20,000 nt of DNA from an uncultured virus (IMG/VR IMGVR_UViG_2822507784_000003). Lineage: Duplodnaviria; Heunggongvirae; Uroviricota; Caudoviricetes. Below are positions 6,078 through 17,463 of the stretch, piece by piece. Where the stretch lies: IMG/VR virus record IMGVR_UViG_2822507784_000003, positions 56,567-76,566 of that record. One strand, written 5' to 3'. The position numbers and the translations under genes were made by a program. The number at the start of each line of letters is the position of its first letter. Within the stretch, counting starts at the first letter, position 1. The notes beneath the pieces are model-generated. The model was given only the letters and a program-made list of their open reading frames with translations, made no database searches and had not been told where the DNA came from.

Positions 6078-6117
6078 AAAAATAAGAGCCGTCCTGTTGG
6101 GCGGCTTGTTTTTATTT
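6078..6117. terminator. Intrinsic terminator after yolD-like gene
   Basis: AGCCGTCC-TGTT-GGGCGGCT stem flanked by A and T runs. Confidence 0.7.
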
Positions 6118-6453
6118 TGCATCAATAATATCAATAAATTTCAACGTCATATTATTGTAAAATGCATCCGTACAAATTATAGATTTATTCAGCGGATCAA
6201 TATCAACAACGGTCATATAGTTAGTAAGTAAAAAACCACCTTCGTAATATGTAATCATTATTTCTTCTTCAGAAAGCAACGAACATAATAGCATGTTCTC
6301 AATCAGTTCTTGTTCATCTTGGGTTAATGTAGGGCGTTCTACTTTCGTCTTTTCTTTAACAATCTTACGGATACCAGCGAATTGCTCCGGCATCGCAGCG
6401 AACGGAGTCCATTTAACCATTCCTCTTCCTTTTGGCATATTAGCGTTGTTCAT
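6112..6453 (-). CDS. yolD: YolD-like protein (Y-family polymerase accessory)
   Basis: N-terminal 'RGMVKW.PFAAMPEQ' signature. Its start overlaps the polymerase stop (ATGA). Confidence 0.88.
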   Translation of the reverse strand: MNNANMPKGRGMVKWTPFAAMPEQFAGIRKIVKEKTKVERPTLTQDEQELIENMLLCSLLSEEEIMITYYEGGFLLTNYMTVVDIDPLNKSIICTDAFYNNMTLKFIDIIDAK

Positions 6454-7715
6454 GCTTTATGTCCCCCTAACAATGTGTTTCTGTATCTTGCTGTTGCACT
6501 ATTTGTATACGAAATTCCTCGTAATATGCTGTTCTTACCAAATTTAGTGCGTATTTCGTCCATTACTTTAGTTAGTTTCAATTCTTTTTCTCTTTGTATT
6601 ACATTATCGAATAGTGAGATTTGTTCTTCGCCTTCATTGATTAAGTTAGTTAAAGAAACATTGATGGATCTAATGGGCTCCCCAGTATAAAACTCATGTA
6701 AAAAATATGTACAAATCTTATAAATATCCATTGTTAAATTAGTTGGTCGGTTCATAGTGTGAGTTTTTTTGAAACCACCAGAATAATTTTTGCTGTAACC
6801 AATGGAAAAATGAATAGTTTGAGCTAGTTTGTTTTGTCTTCGCATTCGATAACAAACTTCCTCGATATGCTCTAGTAGAATAATTGGGAATTCCTCTATT
6901 GTGTAATCACGCATTAGTATTTGACTTTTACCAATAGAAGTTGTTGCTGGAACGTATTTTTCTGATATACGGCTAAAATCAATGCCGTTGCTATGTAAGT
7001 GTAGTTCTTCACCAATAACGCCAAAACTTTGTTTTAAGTATTTAAGTGGGTATTGCGCTAAGTCTCCGATGGAATGTATCCCCTTTCGGTTTAACTTTGC
7101 TTCTGTTTTACCTGAAATCCCCCAAAATTTATTAAGTGGTCGTATTGGCCATAATTTTATGGGTACATCTTCGTACTTCCAGTATGCTATGCAATCTTTC
7201 GTTTTCTTCGCTTCCACATCTAACGCTACTTTGCTCATTAAAGGATTAGGGCCAATTCCTATCGTGCATTCAATTCGTGTCTTCGCATATATTTCACGTT
7301 TAAATTTCAATGCGAAATCATATGGGTCGTTAGCAAACAAATGAATACTATCCGTAATATCCATAAAGAATTCATCAATGGAATATTGGTGGAAATCCTC
7401 AACAGGAACATATTGTAGAGCTAGTTTCGTGATGAAATTGGAGCATTTTATGTAAGTACTCATAATTGGATTCACCACGAGAACATCTTTACGACGAGGT
7501 ATTTCATACAACCGTGCCATTTTCTTAACACCTAACGCTTTTAATGGTGGCGTTGCAGCCAAAACAATAGAACCACTCCTATTCACATCACCAACTACAG
7601 CTAATTTTGTATGAAGCGGGTCTAATCCCATCTTGATACAACTGACTGAAGCATAAAAGCTACGAAGATCTACACATAAAACAATTCGGTTTGGCAATAT
7701 TGAATAGTCATACAC
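6450..7715 (-). CDS. uvrX: Y-family translesion DNA polymerase (UvrX/ImpB/UmuC-like)
   Basis: Motifs CVDLRSFYASV, YSIDEFF and HhH (WGIS..T..KL...GI). GTG start with RBS GGGGGA. Confidence 0.92.
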   Translation of the reverse strand: MYDYSILPNRIVLCVDLRSFYASVSCIKMGLDPLHTKLAVVGDVNRSGSIVLAATPPLKALGVKKMARLYEIPRRKDVLVVNPIMSTYIKCSNFITKLALQYVPVEDFHQYSIDEFFMDITDSIHLFANDPYDFALKFKREIYAKTRIECTIGIGPNPLMSKVALDVEAKKTKDCIAYWKYEDVPIKLWPIRPLNKFWGISGKTEAKLNRKGIHSIGDLAQYPLKYLKQSFGVIGEELHLHSNGIDFSRISEKYVPATTSIGKSQILMRDYTIEEFPIILLEHIEEVCYRMRRQNKLAQTIHFSIGYSKNYSGGFKKTHTMNRPTNLTMDIYKICTYFLHEFYTGEPIRSINVSLTNLINEGEEQISLFDNVIQREKELKLTKVMDEIRTKFGKNSILRGISYTNSATARYRNTLLGGHKA

Positions 7716-13468: not shown

Positions 13469-13516
13469 GTAAGTTGAATAGGGTTGATTAAGTAAAGATA
13501 TCATGAAGAAAAGTGG

Positions 13517-13558
13517 AAATATAGAAATATCCCTATNNATAGGGATATTTCTATATTT
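13517..13558. repeat. parS-like cluster 1: 20-bp inverted repeat
   Basis: AAATATAGAAATATCCCTAT-nn-ATAGGGATATTTCTATATTT. It shares the 18-mer ATAGGGATATTTCTATAT with 14864-14881. The two central bases are undetermined. Confidence 0.7.
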
Positions 13559-13939
13559 TTAAATTTCGGTTAAGAGCTTGAATTTCCTTTTCTGATCAGG
13601 TGTTAGCTCATTTTCTACATAACGATCTATAAGCAGGTCGATAATTTCATAATTGAATTTTGTGTTTGTAAGTTTCATTAATACTTCAAGTTCTTCTTTT
13701 GATTGATTAGAAATTTTAATGCTACCTTGCTGGTTTTTAAATTTCTTTTTCGGTTCAGTTTTCTCGATCCTTTTCTCTTTTCGAGTAGTTGTTTTTTCTT
13801 CTATCTTAGGTTGAGAAGGAGTAACTGTAGCTGCTACCTCTTTATTTTCCGTCGTAGCTTGTCCTTGTTCCGGTACATAAGGCTCAGTAGGTTCAAAGTT
13901 ACTTTTCTTTCGACCTAACAAACCAGGAGTTCTTGCCAT
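13559..13939 (-). CDS. Type Ib ParB-like centromere-binding adaptor
   Basis: Starts 1 nt after the parA stop. 126 aa with a disordered N-terminus and RHH-like C-terminus (SIKISNQSKEELEVL...YEIIDLLIDRYV). Confidence 0.7.
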   Translation of the reverse strand: MARTPGLLGRKKSNFEPTEPYVPEQGQATTENKEVAATVTPSQPKIEEKTTTRKEKRIEKTEPKKKFKNQQGSIKISNQSKEELEVLMKLTNTKFNYEIIDLLIDRYVENELTPDQKRKFKLLTEI

Positions 13940-13940
13940 A

Positions 13941-14762
13941 TTACACACCAACCTTCATTTTTTCAAACATATCAACACGAGATAATAATTCATCACTAAT
14001 CGTTTCGTATAGTTCAATTACATTCATATCATGTCTATCTTTTTCAGTAATACCATTCACATCAAATCGTTTAATACGTTCCATTTGAGGGACGATGTTT
14101 TTAAATAGGTTTTCTTCTCCAAATATTTCACGAGCATTTTCCATGATGTATTCGTCAACTTTACCGTTGTTTTTTAATAGGACAGGAAGAACGCCAACTA
14201 CTTCAATATCAAGATCATATTGCTCTTTTAACTTGATAAGTTCATTAATATAATTCTCGGCACCAGTAAGAGAACGTTCTTGTGTTTGGAGAGCAATTAG
14301 AACATAATCAGAAGCTACAACTGCATTTTTTGTAACTTCTAGTGACATAGGAGGTACGTCGATAAATATGTAGTCGTATTTATGCTTTATCTTTTCAAGT
14401 AATCCTTTAAAGTAATGATCTTCTTCAGCCTCCGAAGAACAATTTTTATAAAGGAATTTTGCGAAGTCCTGAAAATCAACGTAAGAAGGAAGTAAATGTA
14501 AGTTCTCCATAATTTCCACTTCTAAGCCGTCTAGGTTTCCCTCTTGTATTCCTTTCATTAATGTTTTTTCAACAGTAACAATTTCATCAGGATTAAGGAT
14601 TGATTTTGTTAACATTAAAGACTTGGTTGCGTTACTTTGTGGATCAAGGTCAACAAGTAATGTACGCTTGCCCTTTTTAGCGAATTCATAAGAGTTCAAT
14701 ACAGCATTCGTGGTCTTACCGACTCCACCTTTGTAATTACCTACCGTAATTGTAATAGCCAT
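13941..14762 (-). CDS. parA: ParA/Soj-family Walker-type partition ATPase
   Basis: Deviant Walker A KGGVGKTT, VDLDPQSN and YDYIFIDVPP. No N-terminal HTH (type Ib). ATG at 14762 behind GGAG. Confidence 0.95.
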   Translation of the reverse strand: MAITITVGNYKGGVGKTTNAVLNSYEFAKKGKRTLLVDLDPQSNATKSLMLTKSILNPDEIVTVEKTLMKGIQEGNLDGLEVEIMENLHLLPSYVDFQDFAKFLYKNCSSEAEEDHYFKGLLEKIKHKYDYIFIDVPPMSLEVTKNAVVASDYVLIALQTQERSLTGAENYINELIKLKEQYDLDIEVVGVLPVLLKNNGKVDEYIMENAREIFGEENLFKNIVPQMERIKRFDVNGITEKDRHDMNVIELYETISDELLSRVDMFEKMKVGV

Positions 14763-14791
14763 TTTTAACACTCCAGTTATTTATTTTTAAA

Positions 14792-14882
14792 ATTTCCCTA
14801 TATCCCTTTATAGAAATAGGGAAAAATAGAAATAGGGAAAAAGGGATATTTCTAACTATAGAAATAGGGATATTTCTATATC
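14792..14882. repeat. parS-like cluster 2 in the parA leader
   Basis: Multiple direct and inverted ~8-bp units (AAATAGGG / ATATAGAA / GGGATATT) between the parA promoter and start codon. Confidence 0.75.
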
Positions 14883-14891
14883 TTTAAAGAA

Positions 14892-14920
14892 ATTATAACA
14901 ATGATGTACGGTATATGCAA
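14892..14920 (-). promoter_or_regulatory. Sigma-A promoter of parA operon
   Basis: Minus strand TTGCAT-17 nt-TATAAT with extended TG. Confidence 0.75.
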
Positions 14921-15048
14921 TAGAATCATAGAGTTAGTAATTAATAATAAAAACGTTGATATCATAAGATTCTTTTGATGTATGAAGTAGAGGGAGTTAA
15001 GAAATAAATATGTAATTTCGTAGAGATGTTAGTAGATGCAAAAATAAC

Positions 15049-15136
15049 GAAAATAGGGAAATATAGATATAGGGAAAAGGGGAAATATCCCTATATCTAT
15101 AAGTGGAAATAGGGAAATAGGGAAATAGGGATATTT
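15049..15136. repeat. parS-like cluster 3
   Basis: Tandem GAAATAGG x3 at 15106-15129 plus further direct and inverted copies of the same unit. Confidence 0.75.
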
Positions 15137-15282
15137 TGAAAAAAGTGCGTAATCCAGCAGTTTACAAAGGATAAAGCTTGTTGTAACGTAGTACACAACA
15201 AGCATCATTCTACAAAACAAAACATAATTTGATATTTTATATAAACGAAGATCGATAAAACAATTGAATATGAACAGAAAAT

Positions 15283-15456
15283 AAAAAAGCCACTCCCATA
15301 TGCTATCGGCTACCAACCTTTAGCGGGAATGACTCAGTTCTAGTAATTGCTACCAACACTTACTAGACATAACCTGTAACCAAGCAGGACTTCGGTTTAA
15401 GTAGTGCACCAACACTATCCTTAAACAATTATGCCTTTCGACTAGGCTTATTTGAT
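15283..15456 (-). ncRNA. Putative ~175-nt antisense (copy-control) RNA with four UUGG-loop hairpins
   Basis: Hairpins at 15395-15426 (loop UUGGUG), 15373-15388 (CUUGGUUA), 15339-15367 (UUGGUAG) and 15288-15334 (UUGGUAG). The last pairs fully via G-U only on the minus strand and is followed by a U run. A promoter lies directly upstream. Confidence 0.75.
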
Positions 15457-15462
15457 ATACCC

Positions 15463-15491
15463 ATTTTATCTGTGATTGGGCTAAAATTCAA
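15463..15491 (-). promoter_or_regulatory. Sigma-A promoter for the antisense RNA
   Basis: Minus strand TTGAAT (15491-15486), 17 nt, TAAAAT (15468-15463). Confidence 0.75.
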
Positions 15492-15540
15492 CTAGTAAAT
15501 ACTAGATTTGATTATTTTGTAGTCTAAAAGATATATACCG

Positions 15541-15610
15541 GGCATCTCTAAACCTAGAAGTCTTGTGATGTACAGGCCATTTAGGAATTAGAGATGCCTT
15601 TTTGTTTTTT
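15541..15610 (+). terminator. Long terminator/attenuator-like hairpin
   Basis: GGCATCTCTAA-A-CCTAGA ... TTTAGG-AA-TTAGAGATGCC followed by TTTTTGTTTTTT. No ORF ends here. Confidence 0.65.
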
Positions 15611-15614
15611 GTTC

Positions 15615-16092
15615 GCGTGGAATTGCCTGATACCACGTAAATAAAAACTGATAAGCCGTAATTCCGTGCTGCTATACATATAGGGGGAACGTGTTACGGC
15701 GTGGCTAGCTGTTGGTCGTGCAGGGGGTACTGAGTTATACGCCTACAAAAACAGCACCCCTCATTGGATTCCTGTTCATCTGGTGAGGGAGGGCGAGAAC
15801 TTGCCCAGGGACGATTCTCTAAAAGGTTCGGGTGGTTATCGTTAGCATTACGGTGCTAGGGAGTGCATTCAGTTTGTCGTGTAGGGACGATATTACAAGG
15901 ACAAGCCATAGTGAAAGGATGTATGCGATGAAGATCGCTGAGTGAACAGGGTCTATACATACGGATACCTTATAAGTGACCGCATGGCGAAAACAAAGAC
16001 GCTTATCCATCTATTTTGATTGATTACTTTTTTTGTAGTCTGTCAAAGTAGGGGATAAATCTGCCTTCCAGCCGTATTCCTTAATCGTTCCC
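15615..16092 (+). ncRNA. Putative large structured RNA / RNA-primer-type replication region
   Basis: ORF-free on the plus strand, visibly GC-richer than its flanks, many stems favouring plus-strand G-U pairs (15758-15789, 15791-15806, 16003-16058), and long-range complementarities. Confidence 0.5.
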
Positions 16093-16521
16093 ACATGATA
16101 AAAACCCTCAAGACCTTTAGTCAACATTAAATTCGAAGAAATACTGAAAAATATGAGATTGTTTAAGTCCTAGGGGAATGAGTTACTTAGGTAGAGGAAT
16201 AAATAAGGGATTTACTACTTACTTGGTTAGAGGATAAGGGGACGAATGATTAAAATATGTCCTATTGCAGAATTTGGTTTTACATATCGGATATAGTACG
16301 TGAAATTAAACTTATATAATTTTAGTTTGATTGGTATATAGTGATATTCTAGCAGTTGATGAAAAAGCACGTTGAGAAGTGATGAAGTAAACAGAAAAAA
16401 TATTGTTAGAAGATGTAGTGATTAACCTCAGTAAACAAAAATTAACTTTTATTGTATATTTTGAAAATAGATATTAATTAAGGTAATCTTAATTTAAACT
16501 AATAAGGGGAGGGATATCATT

Positions 16522-17463
16522 GTGAAAGTATTTAAATTAACTACAGAAAGTCATGCTCTTTTAGATTTGAATGAACAGAGCTGGGAAACTACTATTGCTT
16601 ATTATGAGAAGGAAACTCATAAGAGAGCGCCCTATTATTGTGATCTAAAAAAGAAAACCAGATATTTTGCTGTTTGTCCTGGTTGTAATAATCCGGTTCA
16701 ATTAGTAAATTTGTATGTTAATAAGAAATTACCAGACAACGAAAAGAAGCAATCCCCACATGCTAAACATCAACCGCATTCAGTTATTGGAATAGCAACT
16801 TATTATCAAGAAAAGTACGATACCTGTGAATTGAGACAGAGAACACCCTTCAGTGATACTGAGAAAAGAACTGGAACGGATGTACCAAATGAAATATTGC
16901 AGCTCATACAACGATATCCAGACATCTTATATAAACATATACGAAAAATAATAGGTATCAATTTTTCTAGACGCGTATTTGAGCGCATGATTGATAATTT
17001 TCTTCGTGCAAATGGACATTGTTATAAGCGTATTAATAAATTTAATTTGCCGTATGCTTTTCTATATATGCAAAAAAGTACAAGAATTATTAATCAACAT
17101 ATTACAGAAGGTCATGCTTATCAAAAAGAAATAATTGATTGTATACAAAATAGTAAATATTTTACTGTATCTGATAATAAAATTACACCTATTAACCCGA
17201 AGGTTGATGGGTTTGTAGAAATTGATTTTTACTTAACAAAACATAAAATTACACCAATTAAAAATATGATTACTCTCTGTATTACTGAATCTAAGGGAGG
17301 GGAAGTTGATAGTTTATTAGAAAAGGAATTTCCAGTAAATGAATCTGATTATATAAATGATATCAACGAGGCGATGGACAATGGGGATAATGAAATGGAT
17401 AGTAATAAAGCTAGATCTCAATTGAGAGAGATGGTACTCAATTGCATTGAAAAAAATAATTGA
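16522..17463 (+). CDS. Hypothetical protein with CxxC...H/C putative zinc-binding N-terminus
   Basis: 313-aa ORF, GTG start, RBS GGGGAGG, upstream TTGAAA-17-TAATCT (16461-16489). Motif CPGCNNPV...PHAKH...C. Confidence 0.75.
   Translation: MKVFKLTTESHALLDLNEQSWETTIAYYEKETHKRAPYYCDLKKKTRYFAVCPGCNNPVQLVNLYVNKKLPDNEKKQSPHAKHQPHSVIGIATYYQEKYDTCELRQRTPFSDTEKRTGTDVPNEILQLIQRYPDILYKHIRKIIGINFSRRVFERMIDNFLRANGHCYKRINKFNLPYAFLYMQKSTRIINQHITEGHAYQKEIIDCIQNSKYFTVSDNKITPINPKVDGFVEIDFYLTKHKITPIKNMITLCITESKGGEVDSLLEKEFPVNESDYINDINEAMDNGDNEMDSNKARSQLREMVLNCIEKNN

Follow-up and report, generated by a model that had tools for sequence, protein, structure and literature searches.

A candidate Rep-less, antisense-attenuated replicon with a structured RNA product in a phage-plasmid of the Bacillus cereus group

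Results

The DNA analyzed here, a stretch of 20,000 nucleotides (nt) that we call the window, is the last part of IMG/VR record IMGVR_UViG_2822507784_000003, which comprises 76,566 bp and belongs to an uncultured virus. Within the window, a gap separates a gene for a ParA-type partition ATPase (13941-14771, minus strand) from the next gene to the right (16522-17463). On balance, we favor the view that the conserved module in this gap is a Rep-less theta replicon that is attenuated by an antisense RNA and yields a structured RNA. The element that carries it is a phage-plasmid of the Bacillus cereus group, since siphovirus genes, an AimR-like regulator, ParA, and a phage replisome organizer share one record; a preliminary description made from the sequence alone had likewise recognized a Bacillus phage-plasmid. 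A Pfam scan of the 89 open reading frames (ORFs) of the record identified siphovirus terminase, portal, capsid, and tail genes together with a holin and an amidase, and this search of the full element for a rep gene revealed no plasmid Rep family.

No credible protein gene was recognized between parA and position 16522, as had been noted before. The longest ORFs of 14772-16521 comprise 95 (15029-15316, minus strand), 63, 47, and 44 amino acids (aa); the 95-aa ORF had no match in Pfam, and no reading frame was conserved among the 23 homologs aligned over the right part of the gap (alignment A1) or the 24 aligned over its control region (alignment A2), the longest frame shifting in strand, frame, and place. 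A scan for tRNA and tmRNA genes was negative. A search of the whole window against Rfam, named earlier as a check on the structured sequence, gave no family match at the gathering score, and 14700-16600 searched at E ≤ 10 gave chance-level matches only.

A structured RNA and its control region

A single conserved module spans 15230-16125 and has four components: a promoter with leader, a countertranscript unit, a terminator, and an RNA of ~450 nt. The last of these, the structured RNA body, occupies 15616-16062 on the plus strand, and GC content climbs from about 0.28 to 0.45 to 0.48 at 15600-16050. When 15616-16070 was folded, the plus strand reached −147.5 kcal/mol (z = −3.43), and none of 100 shuffled sequences folded as well; for the minus strand, z was −1.70, and 6 of 100 shuffles were as good. 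Alignment A1 joins window positions 15596-16130 to 22 homologs (9 from large plasmids, 1 from a divergent 77-kb plasmid, and 12 that are small-plasmid or partial sequences); to limit redundancy, 10 were taken from the 34 distinct homologs that large plasmids contain in full length. RNAalifold returned −69.7 kcal/mol for A1, with 86 pairs, 39 of which carry compensatory changes, and −40.1 kcal/mol for the reverse strand. Standard pairs fill 1,924 of 1,967 cells on the plus strand, including 275 G·U pairs, and 1,662 of 1,967 on the mirrored minus strand, including 13 G·U pairs. Because pair counts, the asymmetry of G·U pairs, and fold energy all favor the plus strand, we assign the RNA to it.

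Most helices are held by a large multi-helix domain, closed by pairing of 15626-15636 with 15942-15950, and the RNA body ends in a long 3′ hairpin (15997-16062). A pseudoknot of 15837-15841 with 15888-15892 was found by eye; in four sequences, both partners are altered at four of its five pairs. With the pseudoknot included, the model has 90 pairs in 16 helices, of which 43 pairs are changed on both sides among the 23 sequences. In this model 97.9% of the cells are paired, versus 40 to 45% when partners are slid by one to three columns, and 0 of 500 shuffles reached any of these measures. The fold of the RNA body is strongly supported by covariation. The preliminary description had pointed to ~500 nt of GC-richer structured sequence and to covariation among homologs as a check on it, and the significant plus-strand fold and the covarying pairs bear out both.

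The strong covariation, the preference for the plus strand, and the lack of a conserved frame argue that the product of the module is an RNA and not a protein or a bare DNA site. A decayed rep gene or a hidden small protein gene would suit the position, which is typical of rep, and ORFs of 95 and 63 aa do exist; but neither A1 nor A2 holds a conserved frame, substitutions in the helices are compensatory, the longer ORF has no Pfam match, and conservation peaks (97 to 99%) where there is no ORF. We therefore regard a coding function of this kind as extremely improbable, and the decayed rep gene was excluded because of the missing frame and the compensatory changes.

Downstream of the RNA body, at 16088-16125, lies a conserved 3′ motif composed of an A-run, a C-rich stretch, and AGTCAA; read on the minus strand, it contains TTGACT-18-TATCAT. 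It is kept in most of the 23 A1 homologs and is a candidate for an initiation site or for an inward promoter. Homology with small plasmids ends at 16124, and an extension at 16126-16310 with 16-nt direct repeats (16183-16198 and 16219-16234) is confined to the large-plasmid group.

The control region upstream was aligned from 24 sequences (A2). A candidate plus-strand promoter is located at 15230-15260, with TTGATA at 15230-15235 and a weak −10 element near 15253-15260. In A2 its TTGATA aligns with TTGATT-17-TAAAAT of relatives L006, L007, and L067 and with TTGATT-16-TGTAAAAT of L075 and L076; the counterpart in L005, TTGATT-18-TAAAAT, is without the TG. Of the two promoter candidates proposed earlier, the one at 15230 is the one that aligns with the relatives' conserved −35 element, whereas TTTACA-17-TAACGT at 15161-15189 falls in the par block, which the Rep-carrying relatives keep as well.

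The promoter is followed by the predicted leader (15262-15540, plus strand), a series of hairpins that would also be the target of the countertranscript. Leader and attenuator together (15262-15625) fold with z = −5.51, and the leader blocks 15256-15334 and 15441-15505 are kept in small plasmids. Sequence and conservation point to a countertranscript that has its own promoter and terminator and is complementary to the leader. This unit occupies 15278-15491 on the minus strand, with a promoter at 15491-15463, an RNA from about 15455 to 15283, and a terminator at 15290-15333 plus a U-run. The promoter reads TTGAAT-17-TAAAAT, with −35 and −10 letters that vary little or not at all across 24 homologs. 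Five hairpins are predicted for the RNA (z = −3.31), and three of them have tips of the UUGGUAG or UUGGUG type. The minus-strand small RNA unit of the preliminary description is thus conserved, promoter and terminator included.

Within the leader, the stretch 15330-15389, the antisense target, is the least conserved of the module: its majority identity is 79 to 81%, versus 97 to 99% in the RNA body (34 homologs). Such rapid evolution would fit a determinant of copy control and incompatibility. As a separate observation, the loops of the leader hairpins (15290-15420) are of the CTACCAA type in most A2 homologs, and L004 has the exact complement, TTGGTAG, in both loops. Retention of the loop word through a change of strand hints at a further partner, in addition to the sense-antisense complementarity that arises automatically.

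Leader and RNA body are separated by an intrinsic terminator, the putative attenuator, with a hairpin at 15541-15599 and a T-run to about 15615 on the plus strand. The attenuator-like hairpin had been noticed before; we find it with compensatory changes in its arms in 24 of 24 homologs. Parts of the leader within the antisense target are complementary to the apex of the 5′ arm of this hairpin, and the partner segment is of the ACAGGACUUC type in 9, of the CACGAGGCUUCU type in 9, and of another type in 6 of the 24 sequences. For the best duplexes of leader and 5′ arm, energies range from −10 to −29 kcal/mol, and z is −2 or lower in 8 of the 24. This alternative pairing fits attenuation in the style of pT181 and Inc18 plasmids but falls short of proof.

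The module and its relatives

Four relatives of the par locus (L013, L014, L015, and L028) encode ParA proteins 90 to 96% identical to that of the window and share DNA homology over 14760-15245 only. In L013 and L028, the two inspected, an ORF of 498 to 534 aa with a PriCT_1 domain follows and is transcribed away from parA. PriCT_1 domains occur in Inc18-type initiators. Since homology with these Rep-carrying relatives stops at 15245 and the PriCT_1 ORF then follows, the ORF-less module is best read as occupying the slot of a rep gene, with its left border at about 15245, where the candidate plus-strand promoter begins. The preliminary description had placed the gap next to ParA where a rep gene usually sits, and the two close relatives inspected do have the PriCT_1 ORF in that position.

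To determine the distribution of the module, 72,556 plasmid records were searched with blastn. Matches were obtained in 190 records with 14760-16530, in 127 with 15140-16320 (76 of them covering at least 80% of the query), and in 101 with 15620-16130 (88 covering at least 80%). Of the last 101, 98 are from Bacillus and 1 each from Peribacillus, Pseudalkalibacillus, and Planococcus. Large plasmids (33 to 234 kb) match 14760-16310 at 86 to 97% identity, always with parA adjoining and with differing genes on the right-hand side; in their 34 full-length homologs, conservation is highest in the repeats and in 15690-16110 (97 to 99% majority identity). Carriers include pALH1, pLVP1401, pE33L54, pBWB404, and the 52-kb plasmid of strain G9241. 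The first four of these are entered as having "no reported minireplicon" in Table 1 of a 2013 survey of B. cereus group plasmids (PMC4219350).

Among 105 genomes that represent the species of the family, 28 had a match. Several B. cereus group chromosomes (L091, which is G012:C1 at ~1985-2085 on the minus strand, and G007, G066, G005, and G026) carry a fragment of ~100 nt that is 73 to 77% identical to 15873-15987. In L091 it lies directly after the terminator of a gene for a 168-aa protein, its pairing partners are missing, and it has no Rfam match. We rejected these chromosomal matches as independent RNAs, judging from the context in L091, where the fragment is truncated and lacks its pairing partners; it appears to be what is left of a module that had integrated. 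Longer copies of the RNA body (80 to 84% identity) on contigs of several megabases, G055:C1:1446610-1447119 (L093) and G033:C1:5226235-5226600 (L094), suggest integrated plasmids or phage-plasmids or else assembly joins. The phage library (50,697 records) gave 10 matches, 9 of which are stretches of ~45 to 58 nt within 16250-16310; the sole match to the module is one partial genome labeled "unverified" and spans 25% of the query.

In small plasmids (6.9 to 28.7 kb), the single large noncoding gap is collinear with the module at 67 to 85% identity, the common blocks being the two leader blocks named above, 15596-15652, and 15702-16124. A MOB-suite replicon type is missing in 11 of the 12 small plasmids examined. 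Pfam assigned resolvases and helix-turn-helix (HTH) proteins among the 45 proteins of four of them, and a Rep family above the cutoff was found in none of these 45.

BTB_15p of Bacillus thuringiensis 407 is a plasmid of 15,189 bp that carries Tn4430-type genes, IS231A, and an ORF of 346 aa followed by a gap of 1.3 kb that is free of ORFs. The gap is homologous to the module at both ends (E = 7e-16), namely in the 5′ control region, with promoter, leader, countertranscript unit, and attenuator, and in the 3′ motif, which is present at its right end; its middle of ~550 nt has no sequence similarity to the RNA body of the window. BTB_15p was left out of A1 because this middle does not align.

Hints of expression came from contigs assembled from RNA sequencing (RNA-seq) data of relatives (four runs with a word share of 11 to 16%). 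In run X14, a contig corresponding to 15526-16307 (depth of 157) is separate from the parA contig (depth of 44), and in run X11 a contig of 282 nt covers only 15257-15539. We take these as weak hints that leader and RNA body are transcribed. The apparently strong expression of the RNA in one assembly would also suit a noncoding RNA of the plasmid or phage with a nonreplicative task, for example in manipulating the host, in defence or counter-defence, or in the control of lysogeny, that is controlled by antisense while replication is specified elsewhere, and large ornate RNAs of unknown role are indeed known on mobile elements. Nevertheless, the module is found at the very junction where close relatives have a Rep-like gene, and it is the sole large conserved feature of cryptic plasmids of 6.9 to 8.5 kb without a typed replicon; furthermore, a single partial genome matches it among all the phage records, and the antisense target evolves fast, in keeping with incompatibility pressure. 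We consider a nonreplicative RNA unlikely.

Partition genes and other features of the element

The ParA-type ATPase beside the module matches Pfam AAA_31 (2.1e-39) and CbiA; its best NCBIfam match is PrgP (3.1e-52), under the cutoff of that model, and we call it PrgP-like. Overlapping the end of parA, at 13559-13951 on the minus strand, is a gene for a 130-aa partner, a candidate centromere-binding protein with a faint match to DUF5388 alone (E = 0.0011, under the cutoff). A small ORF after parA is present, by annotation or as an ORF, in six of six relatives inspected there.

Three clusters of ATAGGGAWAT-type repeats surround these genes. Repeat cluster 1 (14790-14888; families D1 to D5) lies at the par promoter and is a centromere or operator candidate; it has 97 to 100% majority identity in the 34 homologs and is retained in relatives with other replicons. 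Repeat cluster 2 (15037-15145; family D1 and inverted repeats I2, I4, and I7) is inverted with respect to cluster 1, with 87 to 88% complementarity, and lies within the block common to the Rep-carrying L013, L014, L015, and L028. Repeats of the same type recur beyond the par operon as a palindromic cluster (13508-13567; families D2 and D3 and inverted repeat I3). We assign those of the left third of the gap to the partition module, not to the replicon, and read the clusters as its candidate centromere or operator sites. The preliminary description is corrected in this respect: the gap of ~1.7 kb is not uniform, and its left third, with the two clusters of par-module repeats, is distinct from the unit that starts at 15230. 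A terminator-like 10-bp hairpin (15176-15203, minus strand) marks the right edge of the par module, and 15180-15239 is 97.5% conserved in the 34 homologs.

Two N at 13538-13539, in the center of a palindromic repeat, are probably an assembly ambiguity in a hairpin. Relatives L016 to L027, whose ParA proteins are 92 to 93% identical, share only 14760-14928 with the first repeat cluster; they have many more copies of a repeat block of ~100 nt over several kilobases, near MerR-DUF3967 and DUF3892 genes, and thus show a third type of layout next to these par genes. Elsewhere on the element, the AimR-like regulator (2.2e-43) at positions 23311-24540 of the record (L009:3311-4540) suggests arbitrium-type lysis-lysogeny signaling, and an ImuB/UmuC-type Y-family polymerase (IMS) with a YolD partner is encoded at 6112-7715 of the window.

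Discussion

The anatomy of the module is real and far beyond chance; from it we infer an attenuation switch, a replication function, action in cis, and priming. In our model, 15230-16125 (to ~16310 in large plasmids) would be the low-copy, protein-free replicon of the phage-plasmid. The plus-strand promoter would produce the leader RNA, and a constitutive minus-strand countertranscript of ~170 nt would pair with the loops of the leader hairpins. This pairing would free the 5′ arm of the attenuator from the anti-terminator, and transcription would stop at 15615. Transcripts that escape would continue into the pseudoknotted RNA of ~450 nt, which, acting in cis near 16088-16125, would let host enzymes begin theta replication. 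In the simplest form the RNA would act as a preprimer or in an R-loop, and priming in the manner of ColE1 is one possible mechanism.

The control region resembles those of pT181 and of the Inc18 plasmids pIP501 and pAMβ1 in several respects: the predicted countertranscript is complementary to the leader, its promoter immediately precedes an intrinsic terminator, and the leader may pair alternatively with the 5′ arm of that terminator. In contrast to those plasmids, a noncoding structured RNA and no rep ORF lies behind the attenuator.

ColE1 (class B) is approached in other traits. The module contains no initiator protein (helpers in trans are possible), and it has a long structured transcript with a countertranscript against its 5′ part; in ColE1 the former is essential and the latter determines copy number. 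ColE1 primes from a lasting RNA-DNA hybrid, in which RNase H cleaves the RNA and DNA polymerase I then elongates it. Near the 3′ end of RNA II of ColE1, an A-run is followed by C's, and a similar succession is found near the putative 3′ end of the module RNA. The two differ in that the countertranscript of the window appears to act via a rho-independent attenuator and not by refolding a primer, and in that the host of the module is Gram positive. An antisense RNA working without a terminator, as in ColE1, is contradicted by the intrinsic terminator, which separates the antisense target from the RNA body in 24 of 24 homologs. Homology to RNA I or RNA II was not detected with Rfam (whole window at the gathering score; 14700-16600 at E ≤ 10). 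What survives of the preliminary description, which had suggested a Rep-less replicon of ColE1-like logic, is the position in the rep slot and an antisense unit and attenuator ahead of a covarying RNA.

Rep-less replicons as such are already known from ColE1, pLS20, and, reportedly, pHT1030. In Gram-positive bacteria, Rep-less theta replicons have been known for ~30 years. pHT1030 is a 15-kb plasmid of B. thuringiensis, and its origin, ori1030, underlies the vectors pHT304, pHT315, pHT370, and pBS0E, which have long been in wide use for Bacillus. Its minimal replicon is said to have been described by Lereclus and Arantes in 1992 as a segment of about 1 kb that has no ORF and adjoins the stability locus spbA. 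An ORF-less replicon of ~1 kb beside a stability locus would resemble in layout the module beside its par genes. We suspect that BTB_15p, which fits this description, is pHT1030 and thus the source of ori1030. In BTB_15p, the 346-aa ORF adjoins the gap, where the window has ParA and its partner protein instead.

pLS20 has an origin of ~1.1 kb that is without a rep gene, adjoins partition genes, contains DnaA boxes, and is placed, in the parts of the two accounts drawn on here, in an uncharacterized theta class E (PMC8557374, PMC9743546). The module of the window, ~0.9 to 1.1 kb, free of ORFs, and 470 bp from parA, is similar in these outlines. The pLS20 origin is described there as having a consensus DnaA box and three near matches, whereas such boxes are not enriched in the module; conversely, the passages on pLS20 mention no antisense RNA, attenuator, or structured RNA, all three of which are predicted for the module. 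B. subtilis records, those of the pLS20 family included, were absent from the 190, 127, and 101 matching plasmids, the presence of pLS20 in the searched set being unconfirmed.

Several observations speak against a protein-free, attenuated replicon as proposed here. The plus-strand start site is putative, because the promoter of the window has a poor spacing of 18 to 20 nt; its counterpart in small plasmids is strong. The z-scores of the anti-terminator are modest in 16 of the 24 homologs. The RNA-seq contigs give neither strand nor transcript ends, and in runs X1 and X5, two of the four, parA and the entire gap fall on one contig, so that DNA carryover or read-through is possible. Cumulative GC skew over the 76.6-kb record follows gene orientation, reaches its minimum near 20 kb, and does not point to an origin. 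The window has no excess of DnaA-box-like words (70 seen versus 82 expected), and those in or near the module, at 16003, 16050, and 16229, have two mismatches. The remaining observations of this kind concern proteins. A Sak annealing protein and a replisome organizer (Phage_rep_org_N plus HNH) are encoded at 27.7 to 29.8 kb of the record, and these might also serve plasmid replication. Just upstream of the module in BTB_15p, pCI-14, and CP041078 p5, and reading toward it, are genes for a family of proteins of 346 to 422 aa with an N-terminal winged HTH (wHTH) domain and faint RepA_N or HTH_36 signals (L006:101-1141; L007:6972-8240, minus strand; L067:1163-2272); the RepA_N signal in the protein of BTB_15p is faint (19.5 bits against a cutoff of 30). 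In a 7.3-kb relative, a protein of 164 aa with an HTH_36 match and a subthreshold DnaD_N match is encoded downstream.

Since HTH and wHTH proteins adjoin the module in some small plasmids, the family may use protein helpers, and the proteins of 346 to 422 aa are candidates for a stability or helper function of the spbA type. These same proteins, together with the replisome organizer, would support an alternative in which the module is an origin or copy-control region that needs an initiator protein in trans (the replisome organizer, an unrecognized plasmid protein, or a host initiator) and the RNA is a regulatory leader or its transcription activates the origin. Host DnaA is thought to be used by the rep-less origin of pLS20, according to the part of PMC8557374 that deals with it. 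This explanation is weakened by the neighbors of the module, which vary among hosts, no protein being conserved beside it, and by the upstream wHTH family itself, of which no homolog was found in the genome of the window (best tblastn E = 0.89). Moreover, a pseudoknotted RNA of 450 nt with 43 covarying pairs far exceeds the needs of a leader, and DnaA boxes are not enriched. A trans-acting initiator therefore seems to us rather improbable, if less so than a nonreplicative RNA.

Within the Rep-less replicon that we favor, we put forward only tentatively that the RNA of ~450 nt is itself the initiator: it would replace Rep and open or prime the origin in cis with host enzymes only, metered by the antisense RNA, and RNA bodies would be interchangeable, with the control region on one side and the 3′ site on the other in common. 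What appears to be new is an attenuator-gated, covarying, and pseudoknotted RNA in place of rep, as well as the RNA family itself, which is unmatched in the libraries and the literature searched. Neither this RNA nor the way in which these plasmids replicate is described in that literature, which did not include the original reports on pHT1030 (1992) and pLS20 (1995).

In sum, the module is a concrete and mutable candidate for the mechanism by which Rep-less theta replication is initiated. If our reading is true, it would explain why many plasmids and phage-plasmids of the B. cereus group lack a recognizable replicon in typing schemes and would offer a typing marker for them. The variable hairpin loops would be the likely incompatibility determinant, and the module might be a source of compact new vector origins. 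If, in addition, the RNA is the initiator, this would provide a mechanism for the widespread Gram-positive class of Rep-less theta replicons, to which the ori1030 vectors may belong.

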